A DNA stretch of 64,000 nucleotides from positions 96,001-160,000 of IMG/VR virus record IMGVR_UViG_3300028048_000052; one strand, given 5' to 3'. The position numbers were made by a program, and so were the translations under genes. How positions within the stretch are numbered: the first letter of the stretch is position 1; each line of letters begins with the position of its first letter. The stretch is from a virus. Taxonomy: Duplodnaviria > Caudoviricetes. Under the pieces are notes generated by a model. That model was not told where the DNA came from. It saw nothing but the letters and a program-made list of their open reading frames with translations, and ran no database searches. This document shows, piece after piece, positions 2,056 to 39,000 of this stretch.

Positions 2056-3384
2056 ATGTATTGTGGTTATATTGTAAAAATTGATAAGTTAAGAAAACAT
2101 ACCAATGCAGACAGATTACAAATTGCCACGGTTTTTGGTAATGACGTTTCTGTTGGGTTGGATGTTAAATTAGGAGATATTTTAATTTATTTCCCAACAG
2201 ATGGACAGTTATCTACCGAATATTGTGAATATAATAATCTTCTCCGGAAAAGAGATGCAAACGGTGATAATATTGGTGGTTATCTTGATCCAAGCAAGCG
2301 CAATGTAAAAGCAATTAAATTACGTGGTGAAAAATCTGACGGATTATTAATGCCACTTTCTTCACTTGATTATTTTGAACACGATGAATTAAATGTCGGC
2401 GATAAAATTACTGTATTAAATGGGCATGAAATTTGCACAAAATATATTCCAAGAACTAACTCATCTGGGCCAAGAAACCTTGGAAATAAAACGAGAAAAA
2501 GAAAAGCGCCAATTTCTCCATTGTTTATTGAGCACGCTGACACAGAACAACTCGCATATAATCTTAATGTATTTAAACCGGGGGATGAGATTGAGATTAC
2601 TTTAAAAATGCATGGCACATCTCAAAGAACTGGATATTTGCCTGTATTTAAAAAATTTAAACGATCATTATTAGATATTATTTTACGAAGACCGGGTAAA
2701 CCAATTTATGATTGGGGTTATGTTACGGGTACACGCAGAGTTGTCTTAGATACATATGATGGCGGATATTATGGTGGTAATCAATTTCGTGAACAACATG
2801 CAAAATTCTTTGAGGGGAAACTCTTAAAAGGCGAAGAAGTTTTTTACGAGGTAGTTGGTTATATTGATGAAAATAATCCTATTATGGGCAAGGGCAATAA
2901 TAAGAAAATTAATGATAAAGATTTTCTTAAAAAGTATGGGGACACAACTGTTTTTTCTTATGGATGTAACCCCGGAGAAAGCAAAGCCTATGTTTATCGT
3001 ATGACAATGACAAACGAAGATGGTGATATTGTAGAATATACGCCTGATTTTATGCGATATCGTTGTGAACAGATGGGAGCAAATACTGTTCCTATGTTTA
3101 CTAAATTTATTATTCCAGATATTGATTATCAAGATGCTACAACCGGAGAACAACTTTGTGTCGGAGATTATGTAAAAGATATTGCGGAAGAATACTATGA
3201 CGGGACAGATCCAATCGGCAGAACTCATATTCGAGAGGGGGTTGTTGTTAGAATTGTAAATAGACCAAAATTTTGTGCATACAAACATAAGAATTTCTTT
3301 TTTAAAGTTCTTGAAGGATTAATTAAAGAAGATGCAACTGCACCAGATGTTGAAGAAGCTCAGGAGGTATTAGATGAGAACTAA
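2056..3384 (+). CDS. RNA ligase, DRB0094/Rnl5-like (N-terminal OB fold plus nucleotidyltransferase)
   Basis: HTNADRLQ N-terminus, KLRGEKSDGLL, motif I TLKMHGTS, REGVVVR, K-x-K near the C-terminus. Confidence 0.8.
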   Translation: MYCGYIVKIDKLRKHTNADRLQIATVFGNDVSVGLDVKLGDILIYFPTDGQLSTEYCEYNNLLRKRDANGDNIGGYLDPSKRNVKAIKLRGEKSDGLLMPLSSLDYFEHDELNVGDKITVLNGHEICTKYIPRTNSSGPRNLGNKTRKRKAPISPLFIEHADTEQLAYNLNVFKPGDEIEITLKMHGTSQRTGYLPVFKKFKRSLLDIILRRPGKPIYDWGYVTGTRRVVLDTYDGGYYGGNQFREQHAKFFEGKLLKGEEVFYEVVGYIDENNPIMGKGNNKKINDKDFLKKYGDTTVFSYGCNPGESKAYVYRMTMTNEDGDIVEYTPDFMRYRCEQMGANTVPMFTKFIIPDIDYQDATTGEQLCVGDYVKDIAEEYYDGTDPIGRTHIREGVVVRIVNRPKFCAYKHKNFFFKVLEGLIKEDATAPDVEEAQEVLDEN

Positions 3385-19538: not shown

Positions 19539-20480
19539 ATATATATTAGTTGTGGCGTTGCGTTTGTTATAGGAATTTTATTTGCTTATTTAATTTTAAA
19601 ATCCAAATTAGATCATGTAGTTAAAATTAATGAAGATAATATAAAAAGAAATAAACAAATACAAAATGAGGTCATTTATTGAGAAAAGAAAAAAGAAGAA
19701 CTAAATAGCGAATATATAGATTTAAAATCATCTGCTTCATCTCTTGATGCTGAAATAAAAATAAAATCAGAAACGGCTCAAAATATTATTAATTCAAAAA
19801 TTGAATTAATGAAAGAACAAATGGATAGAAAAGCAGAAGATTTAGCAAATCAATATCAATCTGCTATTGATGATGCAAATTCTCAATATTTAGAAATATT
19901 AGCAGATTTATCCAAAACATCAATCGATACAACGGAATCAATTATTGAATTAGAAAAAAAATTAAAGGAATTAAAATCAAAGCATGATGCAGTAGTTGAA
20001 GATTATAAACGAGCGCAAGAGATGAATAATAAAAAAGATTTCTATCGTTTACAATTAACAGATATTGATTTAAAAGAAATAAAAAAATTGCGTGAGGTTG
20101 AGCCATATTTACGTGATGCGCGTCCACTTAATAAAGTCATTTGAAGTGTTTATTATGAGCACCCATATACTGATTTAACTGGGCGTATTATGGGAAGAGA
20201 AAAAAGAACGGGTATTTATAAACTAACAAATCTTACTAATAATATGGTTTATATAGGACAAGCTGTTAATATTGCAGAAAGATGAAAACAACATATTAAG
20301 TGCGCTATTGGGGCCGATAGTGCGCCTAATAATAAATTGTATCCGGTAATGCGGGCAATTGGCCCAGAAAATTTTACTTTTGAGATTATGGAAGAATGTT
20401 TGCCAGAAGAGTTAAATGAAAGAGAACAATATTGGCAAGATTTCTATAAGGCGAAAGAGTTTGGTTATAGTGTAAGATAG
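19539..20480 (+). CDS. TM plus coiled-coil plus C-terminal GIY-YIG protein (3 TGA=Trp; start uncertain)
   Basis: Frame open from 19527 to TAG 20478; N-terminal hydrophobic helix; TGIYKLTN..MVYIGQAVNIAER*KQH. Confidence 0.75.
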
Positions 20481-29596: not shown

Positions 29597-31327
29597 ATGA
29601 AATATATAATGCGTGGAGATTGAAATGAAAATAATAAAACTGCGCTTGTACGGGTTTTATTGAATAGGGGAATGAAAGAAGAAGATATTGAGCATTATTT
29701 AAATACAACAGACGATGATTTAATTGACCCATCCTTAATTGAAAATATACAAGAAGGCACTCAAATGCTTTTAAAACATATTAATGCCAACAATGATATT
29801 TATATTCAAGTAGATTCAGACGTTGATGGTTATACAAGTTCAGCCATTTTAATTAATTACTTGTATAAAGCATATCCAGATTTTGCTAAAACGCATATTA
29901 CCTATGGTCTTCATGAAAATAAAGAACATGGTATTGATATGGATGCTATTAAAGATAATATTAAATTAGTTGTTGTCCCAGATGCTGGATCAAACGAATT
30001 TGATTTACATGCTGAACTTAAATATAATGGGATTGATGTATTAATTATAGACCACCATAACGCAGAGGGCTATTCTGATTATGCGTGCGTAATTAATAAT
30101 CAAATTGGTAACTACCCGAATAAAGATTTATCTGGGGCTGGCATGGTTTATAAATTTTGTTGCTATCTTGATAAATATTTAGGTTTTGATTTTGCAGATG
30201 ATTTTATTGATTTGGCGGTGTTTGGGATAATCGCTGATGTAATGCCACTTACCAATTTTGAAACAAGAAGAATGATTGTTAAAGCAATAGATAATTTTAG
30301 AAGTCCATTTTTAAATGTTCTTGCTTCAGCTAATAGCTTTCAAAGTGGAGTTCAAATAGTTCCAAAGACATTCTCTTGGACTATGGCGCCAGCAATAAAT
30401 GCTATTTGTAGAATGGGTAATTTAGAAGATAAAAAAATTGTATTTGAAGCAATGCTTGAAAAAAATAGCGAATTAGAAGTTCCATCAACCAAAAGAGGGC
30501 ACAAAGGTGAAACAGAGTTATTAATTGAGCAGGCGGCAAGAGTTGCTAAAAATGTTAAAGCTGGACAAGACAGAGCAAGAGATAAATTATGTGAACAGTT
30601 TGAGCAATTAATTAATGATAAAAATTTACTTGAAAATCAAATCTTGGCTCTTAAAATGCCAGATTCAACCCAAGAGGATAGAAATATAACTGGGCTTGTT
30701 GCTAATAAATTAATGAGTAAATATCAAAGACCAGTTCTTGTACTGAGTAAAAAAGTATTAGAAGATGGCTCGGTTCATTGGGCCGGCTCTGGCAGAAATG
30801 GCGGAGATGGGTTAATTAGTTTTCAAAAATTCTTAATAGATTCAAATTTAGTAGATTGGGCACAGGGGCACGACAATGCATTTGGCGTTTCTATTCCCGA
30901 TGAAAATTTCTCTGCTTTGATACAATATGGGAATAAAGAATTGGCTAACTTTGATTTTACTCCAAAATATAAAATAGATATAGTATATTATGGGACAAAT
31001 ATCGATATTGGTGATATTGCTTCTATTGCTGATAATAATGATTTATGGGGAGAGGGTCTTGAAGAACCGAAGATTCTTATAAAAGATTTACCCATCAATT
31101 CAGCGCTTGCTGATATATCACCGAGAGGTTATTTTAAAATATCACTTGGATCTGAGTTAGATATTGTTAAAATGCGAATGGATTTTGATGAGTTTGATAA
31201 AATTATAAAAGGACCAAATAGTAAATTAGATATTATTGGAACTTGTTTCCGTAATGTTGGGTTTGGCGATGGTTTACAAATTAGAATTGAAGATTATGAA
31301 TTAAAAACACAGCAATGGTATTTTTAA
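29597..31327 (+). CDS. recJ: RecJ-like DHH ssDNA exonuclease (TGA at codon 9)
   Basis: DSDVDG, IIDHH, ADVM, GSGR, QGHDNAFG; ATG 29597 after GGTGGT is in frame through TGA 29621. Confidence 0.88.
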
Positions 31328-31408
31328 ACCGTCGGCTATGTCTATTGGACATAACCAGTTGATTTACATTTATGTTTTTTATATAATATATAAAGGAGAA
31401 AGATATAT

Positions 31409-31924
31409 ATGATTATAAAATGTAAATGTACTGTTTGCGGGAAAGAATTTGACGCATTAAAAAGTACTGCAAAATATTGTAGTAAAGAGTGTATGAATAA
31501 AGCGCGCAGAATTAGGGTGGCAGAAGAAAAAAATAATCCTAAAAAAAGAAATGAAAACGGGATGACAGAAAAAACATGCTTGCTTTGTGGGAAACCGTTT
31601 TCTCCTAAAACCGCTGCGGCGAATAATAGAAGCTGTTGCTATGAATGTATGCCAGATGGAGTTCAATTGAGACGTGGAGATTTTTTAGCAAAAATTAAAA
31701 AAATACGCGGAGGGCAATGTGAGCGATGCGGTTATCATACTTCTATAAAAGCGCTTGAATTTCACCATTTAGATCCAAACAAAAAAGATTTTACTATTAG
31801 TAATGATCATTTTAAATTAGAAGAGGCTTTAGAAGAAAGTAAAAAATGCGTATTGTTATGCGCAAATTGCCATAGAGAACTTCATGATGATGTTTGGAAA
31901 ATTGAAGAATTAGGATATAAATAA
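31409..31924 (+). mobile_element. HNH endonuclease with N-terminal Zn fingers
   Basis: CERCGY..LEFHHLDP...KCVLLCANCHRELH. Confidence 0.8.
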
Positions 31925-31940
31925 GAAAGGGGGCGATATA

Positions 31941-33112
31941 ATGGAACTTACAGTAAAACAACAGGAAGCTCTTACGCTTGCTGTTTCTCGCTATGTCAAT
32001 GGAGAAGCATACACATGTATTAGCGGGTATGCTGGAGTTGGTTAGGTAAAACAACATTGATTAGTTTCATTATTTCCGCTCTTGGATTACAACCATGGGA
32101 AGTTTGCTATATTGCCTATACCGGTAAGGCAGCGCTGGTATTAAAAAGCAAGGGATGCGAAAATGCCATGACAGCACATAGATTGTTATATATTTCTCAT
32201 CCAAAAGCAGATGGAACTTTCTTTCATATGCCACGAAGACCTTTACCACCTTATAAAATAATTGTATGTGATGAGATATCAATGTTACCAAAAGATATGT
32301 GGGAGCTTCTTTTATCTCATCATATTCATGTTATTGCGCTTGGAGATCCGGCCCAATTACCTCCTATCACAGAAGATAATGGGGTATTGGCAAATCCGCA
32401 TATATTTTTGGATGAAATCGTACGTCAAGCCCAAGATAATGAAATCATTAAATTGAGCATGGATATTCGTGAAGGAAAACCTTTACAATTATTCAATGGT
32501 AACCAAGTTAAAGTAATTGATAAAAAAGATTTAAAATCGGGAATGTATACTTGGGCTGATCAAATTATTTGTGCTAAAAATGAAACACGACGCCAAATAA
32601 ATGAGTATATGCGTGAAATGACATTGGGTATGAAAACACCCGACCCAGTGGAAGGTGATAAAGTCATCTGTTTAAAAAACGATTGGGATAGTATGAACGC
32701 TTATGGAGATATGTTAGTTAATGGCACCATTGGAACTATTTCTTATATTCGATATGATGATAATAATAAATATTTAAAACCCCATGTTGAATGGGATTTA
32801 TTACCAGATGGTTATATCCCATCTGAGTGTGCTGAAGATCCATATTTTAGAGATTTGAATATTGACTATAAATTATTAACAACTGGTGAACCAACAGTTA
32901 CACAAAAAAATTTTAGAAAATTTCCTCAAATTTGGAAACCAAAAGAATTTGATTATGGTTATTGTATTACCTGTTGGAAAGCGCAGGGTGATCAGTATAA
33001 TAAAGTATTATTATTTGAAGAGGGATTCCCTTTTGAGCCAGAAGAGCATAGAAGATATCTCTATACTGGTATTACAAGAGCAGTTGAAAAATTGGTAGTC
33101 GTAAGGAAATAA
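31941..33112 (+). CDS. RecD/Dda-like SF1B helicase interrupted by a 5-nt insertion in Walker A
   Basis: MELTVKQQEA..ISGYAGVG[TAGGT]KTTLI; DEISM, GDPAQLPP, RQ, KAQG, YTGITRA downstream. Confidence 0.85.
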
Positions 33113-33187: not shown

Positions 33188-34552
33188 ATGAAAAATGAAT
33201 ATGGTTATCTTCCAAATGAGACGCCATCGTTAGGTAAATTACTTTTATATGCTTTACAGCAGGTAATTGTAATGTTTCCAGCGACAGTTACCGTAGCATT
33301 GATTACTGGTTTCCAAGTATCAACAACGATATTCGCGTCAGGTTTGGCGACTTTGTGTTTTATTTTAATTACACAAAAGAAAATTCCTTTGTACTACGGC
33401 TCAAGTTTTGCTTATTTATCTGCTGTTAGCGCAATGGTTATGGCAGAAGGAACTGCTGATCAAATTGCAAGTTGGCAGGCAACAGGAATTTTACCGACTG
33501 AATTAATTTCAAAAGCACAATTTGGAATTATTATGTCTGGATTTGTATCAATTGCGGCTGGATTGCTTGTAAAGAAATTTGGTAAAGACTCTGTTGAAAA
33601 AGTTCTCCCGGCTTCAATTACTGGTCCAGTATCTATGGTCATTGGTCTTACGTTAGCTGGAAACGCTTTAAGTGATGCTATTTCAGCTGGTAATACCGCA
33701 TGGTGCATTGTCGCATTAATTACTTTAATTTCTACTATGATTTATTCAAGATATTTAAAAGGATTATTGGGACAATTACCATTATTATTGGGTGCAGTTA
33801 CTGGTTGTATTGTAGCTGGATTATTCGCATTATTTGGAATTAATTTATTTAGAAGTATTCCAACAGAAGCACTTAATTCACTTTGGTCTTTTGGCCCATT
33901 TGCAATTCCAGCTTTCAGTTTACCGAAATATAGTTGGGCGGCTTTAATTGGAATTATGCCAATTGCTATTGCCACTATTCCAGAGTCAACTGCGCATGTT
34001 TATCAGTTAGATCTTTATGTGCAAGATATTGCAAAAAAGAAAGGTGTTGAAGCTGATAGAATTGAAAATCTATTAGATAAAAATTTAATTGGAGATGGTT
34101 TGTGCGACATGATTTCTGGACTTATCGGTGGTCCAGCTGGAACAAATTATGGCGAAAATATTTCCACAATGGCGATTACGAGAGTATTTAGTATTCCTGT
34201 GTTAATTGCCGCTAGTATTATTGCAATGATAATTTCTTGTTTTACGCCTTTAATTCAAGGAATTTATGCTATTCCGTTAGCTGTAATTGGTGGTTTAGAG
34301 ATTTATCTCTTTGGAGCAATCGCAGCGCAAGGTATGGCAATTATGATAGATAAAAAAGTAGATATGTTTGATAGTAAAAATATTGCTGTTATTGCCACAA
34401 TTGTTATTGTTGGTATTGGTGGACAATATGCATTTGGTGGAAATATTCCATTGTTTGGAATGAATATTCCTTGCGTTGCTGGGGCAGCGATTGCTGGTAT
34501 TCTAATTAATGCTTTATTATCGATAAAGAAAAAAGGAGTAATGAATGAATAA
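33188..34552 (+). CDS. NCS2 uracil/xanthine permease (UraA/PyrP-like)
   Basis: YYGSSFAY, ESTAH, GDG, TNYGEN signature; multiple TM segments. Confidence 0.9.
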   Translation: MKNEYGYLPNETPSLGKLLLYALQQVIVMFPATVTVALITGFQVSTTIFASGLATLCFILITQKKIPLYYGSSFAYLSAVSAMVMAEGTADQIASWQATGILPTELISKAQFGIIMSGFVSIAAGLLVKKFGKDSVEKVLPASITGPVSMVIGLTLAGNALSDAISAGNTAWCIVALITLISTMIYSRYLKGLLGQLPLLLGAVTGCIVAGLFALFGINLFRSIPTEALNSLWSFGPFAIPAFSLPKYSWAALIGIMPIAIATIPESTAHVYQLDLYVQDIAKKKGVEADRIENLLDKNLIGDGLCDMISGLIGGPAGTNYGENISTMAITRVFSIPVLIAASIIAMIISCFTPLIQGIYAIPLAVIGGLEIYLFGAIAAQGMAIMIDKKVDMFDSKNIAVIATIVIVGIGGQYAFGGNIPLFGMNIPCVAGAAIAGILINALLSIKKKGVMNE

Positions 34553-35909
34553 TCTTTTAGAGAAATGGTTTCATTTGAAAGAGAATGGCACTACATTAAC
34601 AACCGAGTTAATTGCTGGTCTCACTACTTTTGCGGCAATGGCATATATTATTGTCGTAAATCCTGCTACATTGGCTGGGTTTGGAGAACCCGGAGCGATG
34701 TTTATTGCTACAATCTTTGCATCTGCGCTTAGTACGGCTCTGCTTGGTTTAATCGCTAATATCCCATACGCCGCGGCGCCGGGACTTGGGTTAAACAACA
34801 CCGCCGCCAACATCCTTGCTGGCTATACAGCTTACCTCGTAGGACTTAGCCCAGAAGGCATTATCGCAGTTGTCTTGCTCTCTGGTTTAATTAATGTATT
34901 AATTACAGTTACAAATATTCGTAAGCATATTATTAAAGCAATTCCAGAGTCATTACAGAATGCAATTAGTGCGGGTATTGGTATGTTTATTATCTATATC
35001 GCATTATGCAATGTTGGTTTGGTTCATTTCACTTTCGGTATTCCTGCTATTAGCACGACAATTGATTTTAAAGTATTATTAGTATTCATTGTTGGCTTAT
35101 GTTTAACGGTTTATCTCTTATTAAAAAATGTCAATGGCGCAATCTTAATCGGTATTGTTGTTGCTACTCTCTTAGGTATTCCTCTTGGAGTAACTAATTT
35201 CAGCACTGGTTATAGTATTGGTGAAGCATTTACTGCTTATGGCCATTGGTTTGGAACTCCTATTACAAAGGGTCTGCCAGAATTATTTAGTGATTTAAGA
35301 AATATCATTCCTATCTTGATTGGTATTTTATCCTTCTCGTTGTCTGATATTTTTGATACAATTGGTACATTCATTGGTACTGGTAAAGTTAGTGGTATCT
35401 TTAATGACGCTGATTTAGAAGATATGGAAAGCGGTTCTGGTTTTGATTCAAAAATGGATAAAGCATTATTCGCAGATGCAATTGCTACTCCTATTGGTGC
35501 TTTACTCGGCACATCTTCAACTACTACTTATGTTGAATCTGCGGCTGGTATCGGCGCTGGCGGTCGTACAGGATTAACCTCTATCGTTGTAGCATTATGC
35601 TTCTTATTATCATTACCATTCGCTGGTTTCGTTAGTGGTATCCCATCAGCGGCAACAGCTCCTGCATTAATCGTAGTTGGTGTTATGATGATGGCATCAT
35701 TAAGAGAGATTAATTGGAATGATTTAGAAGAAGCAATCCCTGCAATGTGTGCAAGCGTGCCTATGGCATTAACCTATGGTATTACAAATGGTATTATGTT
35801 AGGTTTCTGGGCATACACGTTTGTAAAACTTTGTAAAGGAAAGATAAAAGAAGTCCATCCAATCATTTTGGTAAGTGATATCTTGTTTATCTTAAACTAC
35901 CTAATGTAA
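34545..35909 (+). CDS. NCS2 AzgA/PbuG-like guanine/hypoxanthine permease
   Basis: TELIAGLTTF.AMAYII.VNP, APGLGLN, DIFDTIGT, TTYVESAAG..GGRTGL. Confidence 0.92.
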   Translation: MNNLLEKWFHLKENGTTLTTELIAGLTTFAAMAYIIVVNPATLAGFGEPGAMFIATIFASALSTALLGLIANIPYAAAPGLGLNNTAANILAGYTAYLVGLSPEGIIAVVLLSGLINVLITVTNIRKHIIKAIPESLQNAISAGIGMFIIYIALCNVGLVHFTFGIPAISTTIDFKVLLVFIVGLCLTVYLLLKNVNGAILIGIVVATLLGIPLGVTNFSTGYSIGEAFTAYGHWFGTPITKGLPELFSDLRNIIPILIGILSFSLSDIFDTIGTFIGTGKVSGIFNDADLEDMESGSGFDSKMDKALFADAIATPIGALLGTSSTTTYVESAAGIGAGGRTGLTSIVVALCFLLSLPFAGFVSGIPSAATAPALIVVGVMMMASLREINWNDLEEAIPAMCASVPMALTYGITNGIMLGFWAYTFVKLCKGKIKEVHPIILVSDILFILNYLM

Positions 35910-36010: not shown

Positions 36011-39000
36011 ATGAGAACATATTTTGGAGCACATAACCATACTCATTATTCCTAGGTAAGTCCAATTTGCGACTAATTGATTGTATCAATAAACCAAAGG
36101 ATTTAATTAATAAAGCAATAGAGTTGGGGTTATCTGGTATCGCTATAACTGATCATGAAAGTTTATCCGCAGGGATGGAAGTTAATCAATATGCAAAAAA
36201 GATTCACGAAAAAAATCCTAATTTTGTTATTGCATTAGGTAATGAAATTTATTTAACAGATGATAGAAGTAGTGGGCAGAAATATTATCATTTTATTATA
36301 ACAGCAAAAAATAAAAGAGGTTATAGAGCATTAAAAGAATTAAGTTCAATCGCTTGGTATAATATGTATAGTGATAGAGGTATGGAAAGAGTTCCAACTT
36401 TAAAAAGCGAATTGAAAGAGGTAATGAAAAATTATAAAGGTGATGTAATAGCACAAACTGCTTGTATTGGTGGTGAATTATCTCAATTAATTCTTGAAAT
36501 GGAACATGCGAGAGAAATTAATGATAAAGAGAATGCGAATACATCTTATTTAAAGATTAGAGAATTTATTGATTTTTGTATTGATGTATTCGGCAAAGAT
36601 GATTTTTTTATTGAGTGTGCGCCAGCGAATAATCCCGACCAGATTAAAGTAAACAAGAAATTAATTCAAATAGCGAAAGTTTATGGATTAAGAATGATAT
36701 TTGCGACAGACGCACATTATTTAAGACCAGAAGATAGAAGTGTTCATAAAGCATTTTTAAATTCAAAAGATGGCGAAAGAGAAGTTGATGAATTTTATCA
36801 ATATTCATATTTAATGAATAGTGATGAAGTTGAGGAATTATTAAGTTATAGTTTTGAAAAGAAAGATATAGATTGGTTATTTGAAAATACTTTATATTTA
36901 CAAAATAAGATAGAAAATTATAGTTTAGAAAAACATCAAGATATTCCAGAAGTAAAAGTTAAAGATTATCCAAAAGTAAACAAGAAAGAAGAATATGCGG
37001 TTTTATCAAGTTTATATAACTCTGATAATATTCAAGAAAGATATTGGATTAATCAATGTGAAGAAGCATTAATTCAAAAAGGTTTAGATAAAGATAAAAG
37101 GTATTGGGATAGATTAGAAGAAGAAGCAACAACAAAAAGAATTGTTGGTGAGAAACTTCAAACTTGTATGTTTAGTTATCCAAATACTTTACAACACTAT
37201 ATTGATTTGTTTTGGCGTTGTGGTTCAACGGTTGGCGCAGGAAGAGGTTCTGCGTGTAGTGGATTAAATCATTATCTGTTGGGTATAACTCAGTTGGATC
37301 CGATTAAATGGAATTTGCCGTTTTGGAGATATTTGAATCCAGAACGAGTTGAATTAGGTGATATTGATTTGGATTTGGCGCCAAGTAGATTACAAACAAT
37401 ATTTGAAGAAATTAGAAAAGAAAGGGGAGAACTTGGTTTAGTTCAAGTTTGTACTTTTGGAACAGAAGGTACAAAATCAGCAATTCAAACAGCTTGTAGA
37501 GGTTATAGAAGTGTTGATTATCCCGATGGTATAGATGTAGATGAAGCACAATATTTATCATCGTTAATTCCAGTAGAAAGAGGATTTCAGTGGAGTATTA
37601 ATGATGTTATAAATGGAGATGCGGAAAAAGGCAGAGTGCCTGTAACTCAATTTATAAATGAGATTGAACAGTATCCGGGATTATTAGATATTGTCAAAGG
37701 CATTGAAGGATTAGTAAGTAGAAGAGGAAGTCATGCGTCGGGTGTAATTTTATTTGATGAAAATATTTATGATGATGCAGCGATTATGAGGACTCCATCT
37801 GGGGCGATTGTAACTCAGTGGGATTTACATATGCAAGAAGCCGCAGGTTCAGTTAAATATGATTTCTTATTAACATCAGTTCAAGATATTATTATTGAAA
37901 CGATTAATCTTTTACAGAAAGATGGTAAGATTGAAAAAGATTTAACTTTAAGAGAAATATATAATAAGTATTTACATCCAGAAGTATTACCGCAAGATGA
38001 TAATAAAATGTGGGATGCATTAGCAAATGGAACTGTTATAAATTGTTTCCAATTTGATAGTGCAGTTGGTTCTCAGGCAGCGAAAAAGATTAGACCTCAT
38101 ACGCCAATGGAAATGGCGGATGCTAATGGTTTAATGAGATTAATGGCAGCCGAGAAAGGCGCAGAAACTCCATTAGATAAATATGTAAGATTTAAAAATA
38201 ATATTAATTTATGGTATCAAGAGATGAAGAAATGGGGATTAACCGAAGAAGAAATGAAAACGGTTGAACCATATTTTAAATCATCTTATGGGGTACCACC
38301 ATCACAAGAACAATTGATGATGATGTTAATGGATAAAAATATTTGCGGATTTGATTTAAAAGAAGCAAACGCGGCGAGAAAAATCGTTGGTAAAAAACAG
38401 ATGGATAAGATTCCAGAGCTTCATCAAAAAGTATTAGACCAAGCCAAGAGTAAAGCGTTAGGTAAATATATTTGGGCACAAGGTGTTGGCCCGCAGATGG
38501 GTTATTCATTTAGTATTATTCATGCATTAGCATATTCATTTGTTGGTATGCAAACTTTATATTTAGCGACTCATTTTAATCCAATTTATTGGAATACGGC
38601 GTGTTTGATTGTTGACAGTGGGTCGTTAGAAGAAAGTAGTGATAGCACAAATTATAGAAAGATAGCGATAGCGATTGGTAAAATGAGAAAAGCTGGTATT
38701 AATATTAGTTTAGTTGATATTAATAAGTCAGGTTTTGGATTTGAACCAGATGCAGAAAATAATAGAGTGTTATTTGGATTAAAAGCGGTAATGGGTGTTG
38801 GCGATGAAGTCACGAATAAAATTATTGAGAATAGACCTTATAGTTCAGTAAATGATTTTATTGAAAAAGTTAATCCAAATAGGACAGCGATGGTTGCATT
38901 AATAAAAGGTGGAGCGTTTGATGTATTAGAGCCAGATAGAATCAAATGTATGAAAGATTATATTTGGGAAACTTGTGATAAGAAAAAGAGATTAACGATG

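Follow-up and report, generated by a model that had tools for sequence, protein, structure and literature searches.

The interrupted helicase gene

The DNA considered here, the whole of which we call the window, comprises 64,000 nucleotides (nt; positions 96,001 to 160,000 of the IMG/VR record IMGVR_UViG_3300028048_000052). It is the replication module of an uncultured 175-kb phage, whose genome is rated 100% complete by CheckV. Our subject is a helicase gene in which five surplus nucleotides, TAGGT, interrupt the codons of the Walker A box, also known as the P-loop. A gene for a free-standing HNH endonuclease lies directly upstream, between the helicase gene and that of a RecJ-like exonuclease, and dnaE, further downstream, contains a second interruption of the same design. 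The features are compiled in Table 1. No cultured relative can serve as a model: among GenBank phages the closest helicases are at most 38% identical and the relatives of the HNH protein are distant.

Table 1. Features of the helicase locus and of the dnaE site (positions in the window)
Feature	Position	Strand	Basis
RecJ-like single-stranded DNA exonuclease gene, left neighbour	29660..31327	+	phrog_2484 E 8.6e-136, Pfam DHH/DHHA1
Insertion relative to L001, 613 nt, holding the HNH gene	31328..31940	+	alignment with L001
Free-standing HNH endonuclease gene, 171 amino acids	31409..31924	+	phrog_2255 E 2.9e-25
Helicase part 1, 34 codons, MELTV...GYAGVG; divergent, probably co-converted	31941..32042	+	comparison with L001
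GGAG, formed by Gly-Val codons	32034..32037	+	direct reading
Take-off codon GGT (Gly)	32040..32042	+	direct reading
5-nt gap TAGGT; stop TAG 32043-45 overlaps landing GGT 32045-47	32043..32047	+	direct reading
Helicase part 2, AAA (Walker A Lys) to TAA 33110-12; Dda/RecD-like SF1 core	32048..33112	+	Pfam, PHROG
dnaE sister site: take-off TCC, gap TAGGTAAGTCC (11 nt), landing TCC 36061-63	36050..36063	+	direct reading

Read from the ATG at 31941, the letters around the interruption are GGG TAT GCT GGA GTT GGT(32040-42) TAG(32043-45) GT(32046-47) AAA(32048-50) ACA ACA TTG(32057). The upstream open reading frame (ORF; 31941..32045) yields 34 amino acids (aa) with the C-terminus GYAGVG*. The downstream ORF (32057..33112) has 351 aa if counted from TTG 32057, and its frame is open back to 32024; the two frames thus overlap from 32024 to 32047. 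Only when TAGGT is removed does a complete Walker A of a Dda/RecD-like helicase emerge, GYAGVGKTT. Skipping the 5 nt thereby regains the motif G[YFW]AGxGK[ST]T, which is invariant in this helicase family, and the product matches the G[YF]AGVGKTT of two related loci (L103 and L104). The part after the gap matches the Pfam profiles AAA_30 (from profile position 47), AAA_19 and UvrD_C_2 and is a Dda-like helicase by phrog_325 (E 3.6e-76). With the gap skipped, AAA_30, UvrD_C_2 and a Walker A of the form GxxGxGK[ST] are united in one chain, as is typical of superfamily 1B helicases of the Dda/RecD-like kind. It is the single copy of its family in the phage genome.

A preliminary description of this DNA had already pointed to a stop-first 5-nt insert with an exact landing codon, to a GGAG 7 nt before the landing GGT, to an intact remainder of the helicase gene and to a free-standing HNH gene directly upstream. 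The insert was found as described, letter for letter, the GGAG is present, and the Pfam and PHROG matches bear out both the intact remainder and the identity of the HNH gene. As a Shine-Dalgarno-like signal, the GGAG was dropped; it is not conserved among related gapped alleles. TAG terminates three long ORFs in this phage and is therefore counted as a real stop. A stop followed by an exact repeat of the preceding codon would be expected in 1/1024 random pentamers.

In the downstream frame a TAG stands at 32021-23, and neither ATG nor GTG nor TTG occurs from there to the Lys codon, which implies that the catalytic Lys can be reached solely from the upstream frame, within 32024-32047. A restart at TTG 32057 would lose this Lys, as had been claimed before, since its codon precedes the TTG. 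A split gene, with the 34-aa peptide and a second protein initiated anew at TTG 32057 that act together or separately, is exceedingly improbable. AGGT, 9 nt and TTG do resemble a weak ribosome-binding site with a start, and dnaE likewise offers TAGGTAA-N7-TTG. However, the K, T and T codons (32048-56) would end up in neither product, yet are conserved, the TTG is a conserved Leu codon in both genes, and most gapped relatives have no start after the gap.

The overlap of the frames also invites the idea of a -1 frameshift at GGT-T, which would produce GYAGVG-L-GKTT, or of a 1-nt deletion from GGT TTA GGT. The resulting AGVGLGKT formally fits the pattern [AG]xxxxGK[ST]. Two extra P-loop residues are, however, seen in 0 of 138 relatives, a slippery heptamer is missing from 32024-32047, and tRNA-Gly would be unable to re-pair on UGG. 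Nor can a -1 shift explain the related gaps of 6 and 7 nt, and we consider this reading very unlikely.

A mosaic locus

Seven close relatives of the window helicase are available: L001 (96% aa identity), L100, L101 and L136 (about 90%), L102 (82%), and L103 and L104 (76%). All seven have an uninterrupted G[YF]AG[AV]GKTT and no HNH gene. In L001 the ORF map places the helicase start 12 nt after the RecJ-like gene. The extra DNA of the window relative to L001 consists of the 613-nt insertion with the HNH gene and of the 5-nt gap.

The HNH protein has intact motifs (CxxC...HH...N...CxxCH); its Pfam score of 20.9 bits is slightly below the cut-off of 21.4. By direct reading, the gene is preceded by its own promoter-like sequence, TTGATT-17-TATAAT (31359-31387), and by an AAGGAG ribosome-binding site.

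The DNA identity between the window and L001 is 84% in recJ, 68% in the 102 nt from the helicase start to the gap, and about 90% in what follows. The closest match of the window's 5' segment is L102 (79%), a gap-free lineage without HNH gene. The drop in identity that ends at the gap and the affinity of the 5' segment to L102 make the window look like a recombination product with the gap as its right junction. As far as can be judged from sequence, the mosaic looks like the pattern expected from a homing event with co-conversion. The gene shows no sign of decay: when L100 and L101 serve as outgroups, the codon changes assigned to the window branch of the helicase are synonymous in 47 cases and non-synonymous in 4.

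Walker A gaps across the helicase family

For a broader comparison, searches of IMG/VR and metagenome contigs, anchored either 3' of the P-loop or on the HNH gene, supplied 138 helicase loci. In 31 of them a short insert interrupts the same Walker A; they represent 16 lineages and 19 gap alleles, with gap lengths of 5, 6, 7 and 8 nt. In a tree of the helicase 3' part the gapped loci stand in at least 12 separate places. The insert follows directly after the Ala codon of GYA in every gapped lineage but the window.

With the gap in brackets, two in-frame alleles read GCT[TAGGCT]GGT (L037) and GCT[TAAGCT]GGC (L038). Others are GCT[TAAAAGTT]GGA (L021), GCT[TAAAGCT]GGA (L024), GCC[TAACC]GGA (L028), GCC[TGAACT]GGA (L039), GCC[TAAAGGCA]GGT (L051), GCT[TGACT] (L063), GCT[TAACT] (L064), GCC[TAACGACC]GGC (L128), GCC[TAAGGTA]GGT (L141, 7 nt), GCC[TAAATGCA]GGA (L144, 8 nt) and GCT[TAAGGCA]GGT (L153). 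A stop codon comes first in the upstream frame in 18 of the 19 gap alleles. The sole stop-less gap, GCC[CGGTG]GGT of L047 (locus positions 22-411 and 480-500), has as its first codon CGG, which is rare in AT-rich genomes. In-frame stops are present in the HNH gene upstream of this gap, a sign of either decay or recoding. Across 13 independent lineages, the landing triplet, made up of the final three gap bases, agrees with the take-off codon in 27 of 39 positions (simulated P<1e-5); four further gap alleles match at 7 of 12.

The cassettes of L141 (3114-3141) and L144 (1183-1211) are 95% identical, yet their gaps differ in sequence and in length, 7 versus 8 nt. The gap thus evolves much faster than its coding flanks, and its length drifts freely. 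Lengths of 5-8 nt that vary even between near-identical cassettes rule out a fixed +1 or -1 frameshift; they fit bypassing or excision.

The flanks behave differently from the gaps. All lineages have intact codons next to the gap, those for GYA immediately on its 5' side and those for GxGK[ST]T immediately on its 3' side. Between the gapped loci L063 and L064 there are 113 substitutions, and the ratio of non-synonymous to synonymous substitution rates (dN/dS) is 0.078 at a dS of 0.51; for L037 and L038, also both gapped, dN/dS is 0.051. The sole change within the gap is TGA/TAA in the first pair and TAG/TAA in the second. Purifying selection, intact flanking codons and the lack of a start codon after most gaps together indicate that selection acts on a polypeptide that spans the gap.

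Among the gapped phages, those with in-frame, recoded TAG in replication genes have TAA or TGA as the gap stop in 6 of 6 cases. This pattern fits the need for a real stop but is not significant (about 0.4 by our own estimate). In-frame TAG occurs in recJ, helicase and dnaE of L024, L028, L039, L063, L064 and L070 and of many gap-free loci, in the helicase N-terminus at Gln positions. A few relatives have in-frame TGA instead of TAG, and genes on the '-' strand of the window contain serial in-frame TGA; several genetic codes coexist within this phage group.

Two further loci, L044 (~2818-3000) and L096 (~2776-2985), carry a long insertion at the same P-loop, which ends in ...IVTHN, an intein-like C-terminal motif, and is followed by T. 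These would apparently be inteins between GK and T, and the same codons would then host both micro-gaps and inteins. The top GenBank match of the helicase, in Bacillus phage vB_BpuM-BpSp (KT895374.1, 49683-51075), is in two pieces over ~1.4 kb that are annotated as a pair of hypothetical proteins; here a cultured phage may have an interrupted helicase.

Linkage of gap and HNH gene

A search anchored on the HNH gene yielded 13 loci of 8 lineages. Their HNH genes are homologues of 60-69% identity (60-66% for the window's HNH against those of L021, L141-L153 and others), and each lies directly upstream of a helicase gene with a 5-8 nt gap. HNH homologues in this position are found in L021, L047, the L051 group, L141-145, L146/147 and L153. 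Conversely, none of about 110 gap-free loci has an HNH gene within 2.5-3 kb. In the first locus set the association of HNH gene and gap had a Fisher P of 1.4e-4. At a base rate of 23 gapped among 106 representatives, 8 of 8 is very unlikely to arise by chance (~5e-6 by our own arithmetic).

L141 and L061 form a second recent pair of filled and empty sites, besides the window and L001. They are 96.7% identical on both sides, and L141 additionally has a 641-nt HNH insertion and its 7-nt gap. The 5' segment of the L141 helicase diverges visibly more than the flanks do (an identity of roughly 78%, counted from the alignment). Over the last 84 nt ahead of the gap, the closest matches of gapped alleles are again gapped, with DNA identities of up to 88% between phages whose helicase cores are merely 45-50% identical as proteins. 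The 3' parts of the gapped helicases are nearest to gap-free genes. The 8/8 co-occurrence, the filled and empty pairs and the conflict between 5' and 3' neighbours imply that HNH gene, 5' segment and gap move as a set.

Eight lineages possess a gap but no HNH gene. GIY-YIG-like ORFs are seen between helicase and dnaE in some HNH-less gapped loci, L024 (4223-4456), L063 (5028-5381), L064 (5215-5592) and L070 (5783-6055). By analogy with MobA elements, these may be replacement endonucleases.

RNA structure of the related cassettes

Cassettes with the gap after GYA have a hairpin, the 3' arm of which extends to the take-off codon. The mean minimum free energy is -22.8 kcal/mol for the gapped alleles other than the window's and -11.9 kcal/mol for gap-free ones (Mann-Whitney P 2e-8). 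The pairs of this hairpin are mostly invariant, and compensatory changes are found in 2 pairs only. In L037 and L047 an equivalent stem is made of other letters.

Although gap-free, L102 (2915-2980) folds into a cassette-like hairpin (-18.4 kcal/mol) with its end at the Ala codon, and perhaps represents a cassette from which gap and HNH gene have been lost.

The sister site in dnaE

The dnaE site (Table 1) reads TCC (36050), TAG GTAAG, TCC (36061) and shares the design of the helicase gap. Skipping its gap restores HNHTHYS-NLRLIDC. The TCC[TAGGTAAGTCC] arrangement (36011-36069 region) is absent from the nearest relative, L222, which reads MREYFGAHNHTMYSNIRLIDC unbroken. After the gap, the dnaE products of L222 and the window are 98% identical over 378 aa; the 14 codons before it look more divergent (about 81% by our own count). 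No endonuclease gene adjoins dnaE in the window.

When the whole window was scanned for codon-stop-codon arrangements in ORF context, the helicase and dnaE sites alone survived. Candidates at 19567(+) and 60248(-) turned out to be an ordinary gene start and a terminator-promoter region, respectively. For TAGGTAA-N7-TTG as an element shared by helicase and dnaE there is no case, because AA and TTG are coding (Lys and Leu codons); the common part shrinks to about TAGGT.

Between the helicase gene and dnaE (33188-35909) lie two tandem permease genes of the xanthine/uracil family, the first with a Xan_ur_permease match of E 1e-57. They are kept in L001 and are an unusual cargo for a phage replication module.

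How the gap may be crossed

We favour, as probable, the view that 31328-32047 is a homing-endonuclease cassette whose coding gap must be skipped, most likely by a stop-hop of +5. It is composed of the free-standing HNH gene, the replaced 5' segment of the helicase gene and, within the Walker A box, the 5-nt TAGGT gap. The likely target of the HNH enzyme would be the P-loop DNA, which is highly constrained. Since the gap interrupts precisely this DNA, a carrier would be immune to its own nuclease, in analogy to known endonuclease-linked gaps, and the gap would protect it.

In the proposed sequence of events peptidyl-tRNA-Gly would sit on GGU 32040 in the P site with UAG in the A site. The tRNA would unpair, the mRNA would slide by 5 nt, and the tRNA would re-pair with GGU 32045. 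Decoding would restart at AAA 32048 and yield ...GYAGVGKTTL..., with the junction peptide YVNGEAYTCISGYAGVGK. All other alleles could be read in the same way, with a stop or hungry codon in the A site, re-pairing of the tRNA a few bases downstream and decoding of the next codon. By analogy, a short ribosomal hop would be the best single explanation for all gap alleles. At the window, three traits of bypass sites are found: removal of the gap restores the protein, a stop follows the take-off codon, and GGT is the codon at take-off and at landing alike. A fourth, a stem-loop at or 5' of the take-off codon, is not seen there.

Several observations weigh against this view. The gap of the window is a singleton; it is absent from the seven close relatives, and an exact-junction scan of IMG/VR with TAYGCNGGNGTNGGTTAGGTAARAC matched no other contig. 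Its place, behind GVG, is two codons 3' of where all other gaps lie, and the take-off residue is Gly instead of Ala. The 5' segment, nearest to that of the gap-free L102 at 79%, is outside the cluster formed by those of the other cassettes. A strong hairpin is missing: the fold reaches -15.6 kcal/mol (z -1.0), and the z value for 32000-32110 is -0.3, so that RNA structure around the site is no better than in shuffled sequences. A 14-bp helix across the gap is made up of G-U pairs by half, and a 7-bp hairpin remnant, CUCGCUA with UAGCGGG, was paired by eye. Finally, Weiss et al. reportedly observed in 1987 that bare codon-stop-codon hops in synthetic constructs are of low efficiency, about 1%. 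In short, the window is an atypical member in its own helicase family: it shares the homologous HNH gene and the stop-first gap and differs in the residue and position of take-off, in the hairpin and in the 5' segment.

The preliminary description had taken relatives without a conserved insert as pointing to a recent inactivating mutation. On this point the outcome is divided: the exact insert at its exact position is absent from the relatives, but the class of insert is conserved two codons upstream. A recent inactivating lesion, for instance the scar of an imprecise repair after HNH cleavage, would leave the helicase dead in one lineage and the gap would never be crossed. The isolated occurrence of the insert and the lack of a hairpin would suit such an accident. 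It is nevertheless unlikely in view of the 1/1024 odds of the design, of the second such site in dnaE and of a genome rated complete. The 47 synonymous versus 4 non-synonymous changes, in the only copy of the family in the genome, are not those of a dead gene. The HNH link and the mosaic junction, too, speak against it, as do the other HNH-bearing lineages, which keep their gapped genes under selection.

A singleton in a metagenomic contig also raises the suspicion of an assembly or sequencing artefact. The gap, however, coincides with a mosaic boundary and with the HNH insertion of 613 nt, dozens of independent assemblies show similar gaps, and a 5-nt non-homopolymer insertion is an unusual type of error. 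An artefact is therefore most improbable.

The gap might, alternatively, be removed before or outside translation, by RNA micro-excision, by editing or by polymerase bypass. Conserved flanking codons and the tolerance of any gap length would indeed fit removal at any level. For the excision of 5-8 nt from a bacterial mRNA, however, there is no known mechanism, which renders this route quite improbable.

Returning to the hop, one may go further and suppose that bare GGU UAG GU suffices for efficient hopping without a hairpin. The output of helicase and dnaE would then be tied to the activity of the release factor, perhaps to the phage's own recoding of TGA as Trp, and might act as a replication timer. 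We regard this extension as doubtful.

Relation to known systems

The T4 MobA/gene 60 cassette has been described by Manning and Atkins as having a stop or hungry codon after the take-off site and matched codons (bioRxiv 10.1101/2022.08.31.505936). Some MobA elements have lost the endonuclease and kept the bypass (bioRxiv 10.1101/2022.08.31.505936). The preliminary description had seen a likeness to T4 gene 60 and mobA, and this idea has gained comparative support from the 8/8 co-occurrence, the filled and empty pairs and the purifying selection on gapped genes. Like T4 gene 39/mobA/gene 60, the locus pairs a free-standing HNH gene with a coding gap in the adjoining replication gene as one mobile unit. 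As in gene 60, a stop or hungry codon follows the take-off site, take-off and landing Gly codons match, and invariant residues are interrupted. As in the T4 cassette, the take-off site shifts by a codon or two between clades, gapped lineages without endonuclease exist, and most insertions look recent.

The differences are equally clear. The target in the window is the P-loop of a Dda/RecD-like helicase, in the T4 type it is the large-subunit gene of topoisomerase II. The gap has 5 nt (5-8 nt in relatives) instead of 50 nt. There is no division of the gene into two subunits that bear added tails, and a take-off stem-loop is lacking. A BLASTP comparison of the window's HNH protein with T4 gp60.1 and mobA remnants gave E 1.8 and no alignment, a weak test, as the T4 copy is defective. 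The window cassette would work like T4 gene 39/mobA/gene 60 but stands outside that element; the hopping itself would be a matter of analogy.

Synthetic stop-hops are known, and a natural in-frame stop-hop is not (PMC5009743). With these constructs the gaps share the codon-stop-codon geometry and would share the short forward re-pairing of peptidyl-tRNA. L037 (GCT TAG GCT) and L038 (GCT TAA GCT; both 2968-2985) even have exactly the same layout of 9 nt for one Ala. Unlike the synthetic hops, which are engineered and inefficient, the gap sites are natural, reside in replication genes and are under selection.

Next of kin is the hairpin-Ala-stop cassette of L010-L153. The window resembles it in the homologous HNH gene at the same place, in a stop-first gap of 5-8 nt that falls within the same Walker A, and in the mosaic boundary at the gap. 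It differs by a gap after GVG rather than GYA, Gly as take-off residue, the absence of a hairpin and a 5' segment that is not of the cassette type.

The byps of Magnusiomyces capitatus mitochondria are comparable as many short inserts that are neutralised by bypassing and tolerate codon matches at two of three positions (PMC5009743). In contrast to the present gaps, they are mitochondrial, need an unused codon in the A site and show no link to homing endonucleases. Their length is said to be 27-55 nt in the original report.

A full-text literature search did not find such gaps in helicase genes described. Shorter counterparts of gene 60 have long been presumed (PMC5009743).

Significance

What is known of bypassing in bacteria and phages comes essentially from a single element, T4 gene 60 with its homologues in topoisomerase genes. 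If the view advanced here is true, the helicase family would add a large natural series of minimal bypass sites, in which length, stop, landing match and hairpin vary and by which the sliding of ribosomes could be dissected. The window would be the shortest and cleanest case, with a 5-nt gap, an exact landing codon, no hairpin and a second site in the same genome. L037 and L038 would be natural in-frame stop-hops of the type that PMC5009743 calls unknown. Further, 'frameshifted' or split replication genes of uncultured phages may be intact, which would be a warning for annotation. Homing endonucleases, finally, would be able to colonise the most constrained coding DNA with a micro-gap, and not an intron or intein, as their partner.

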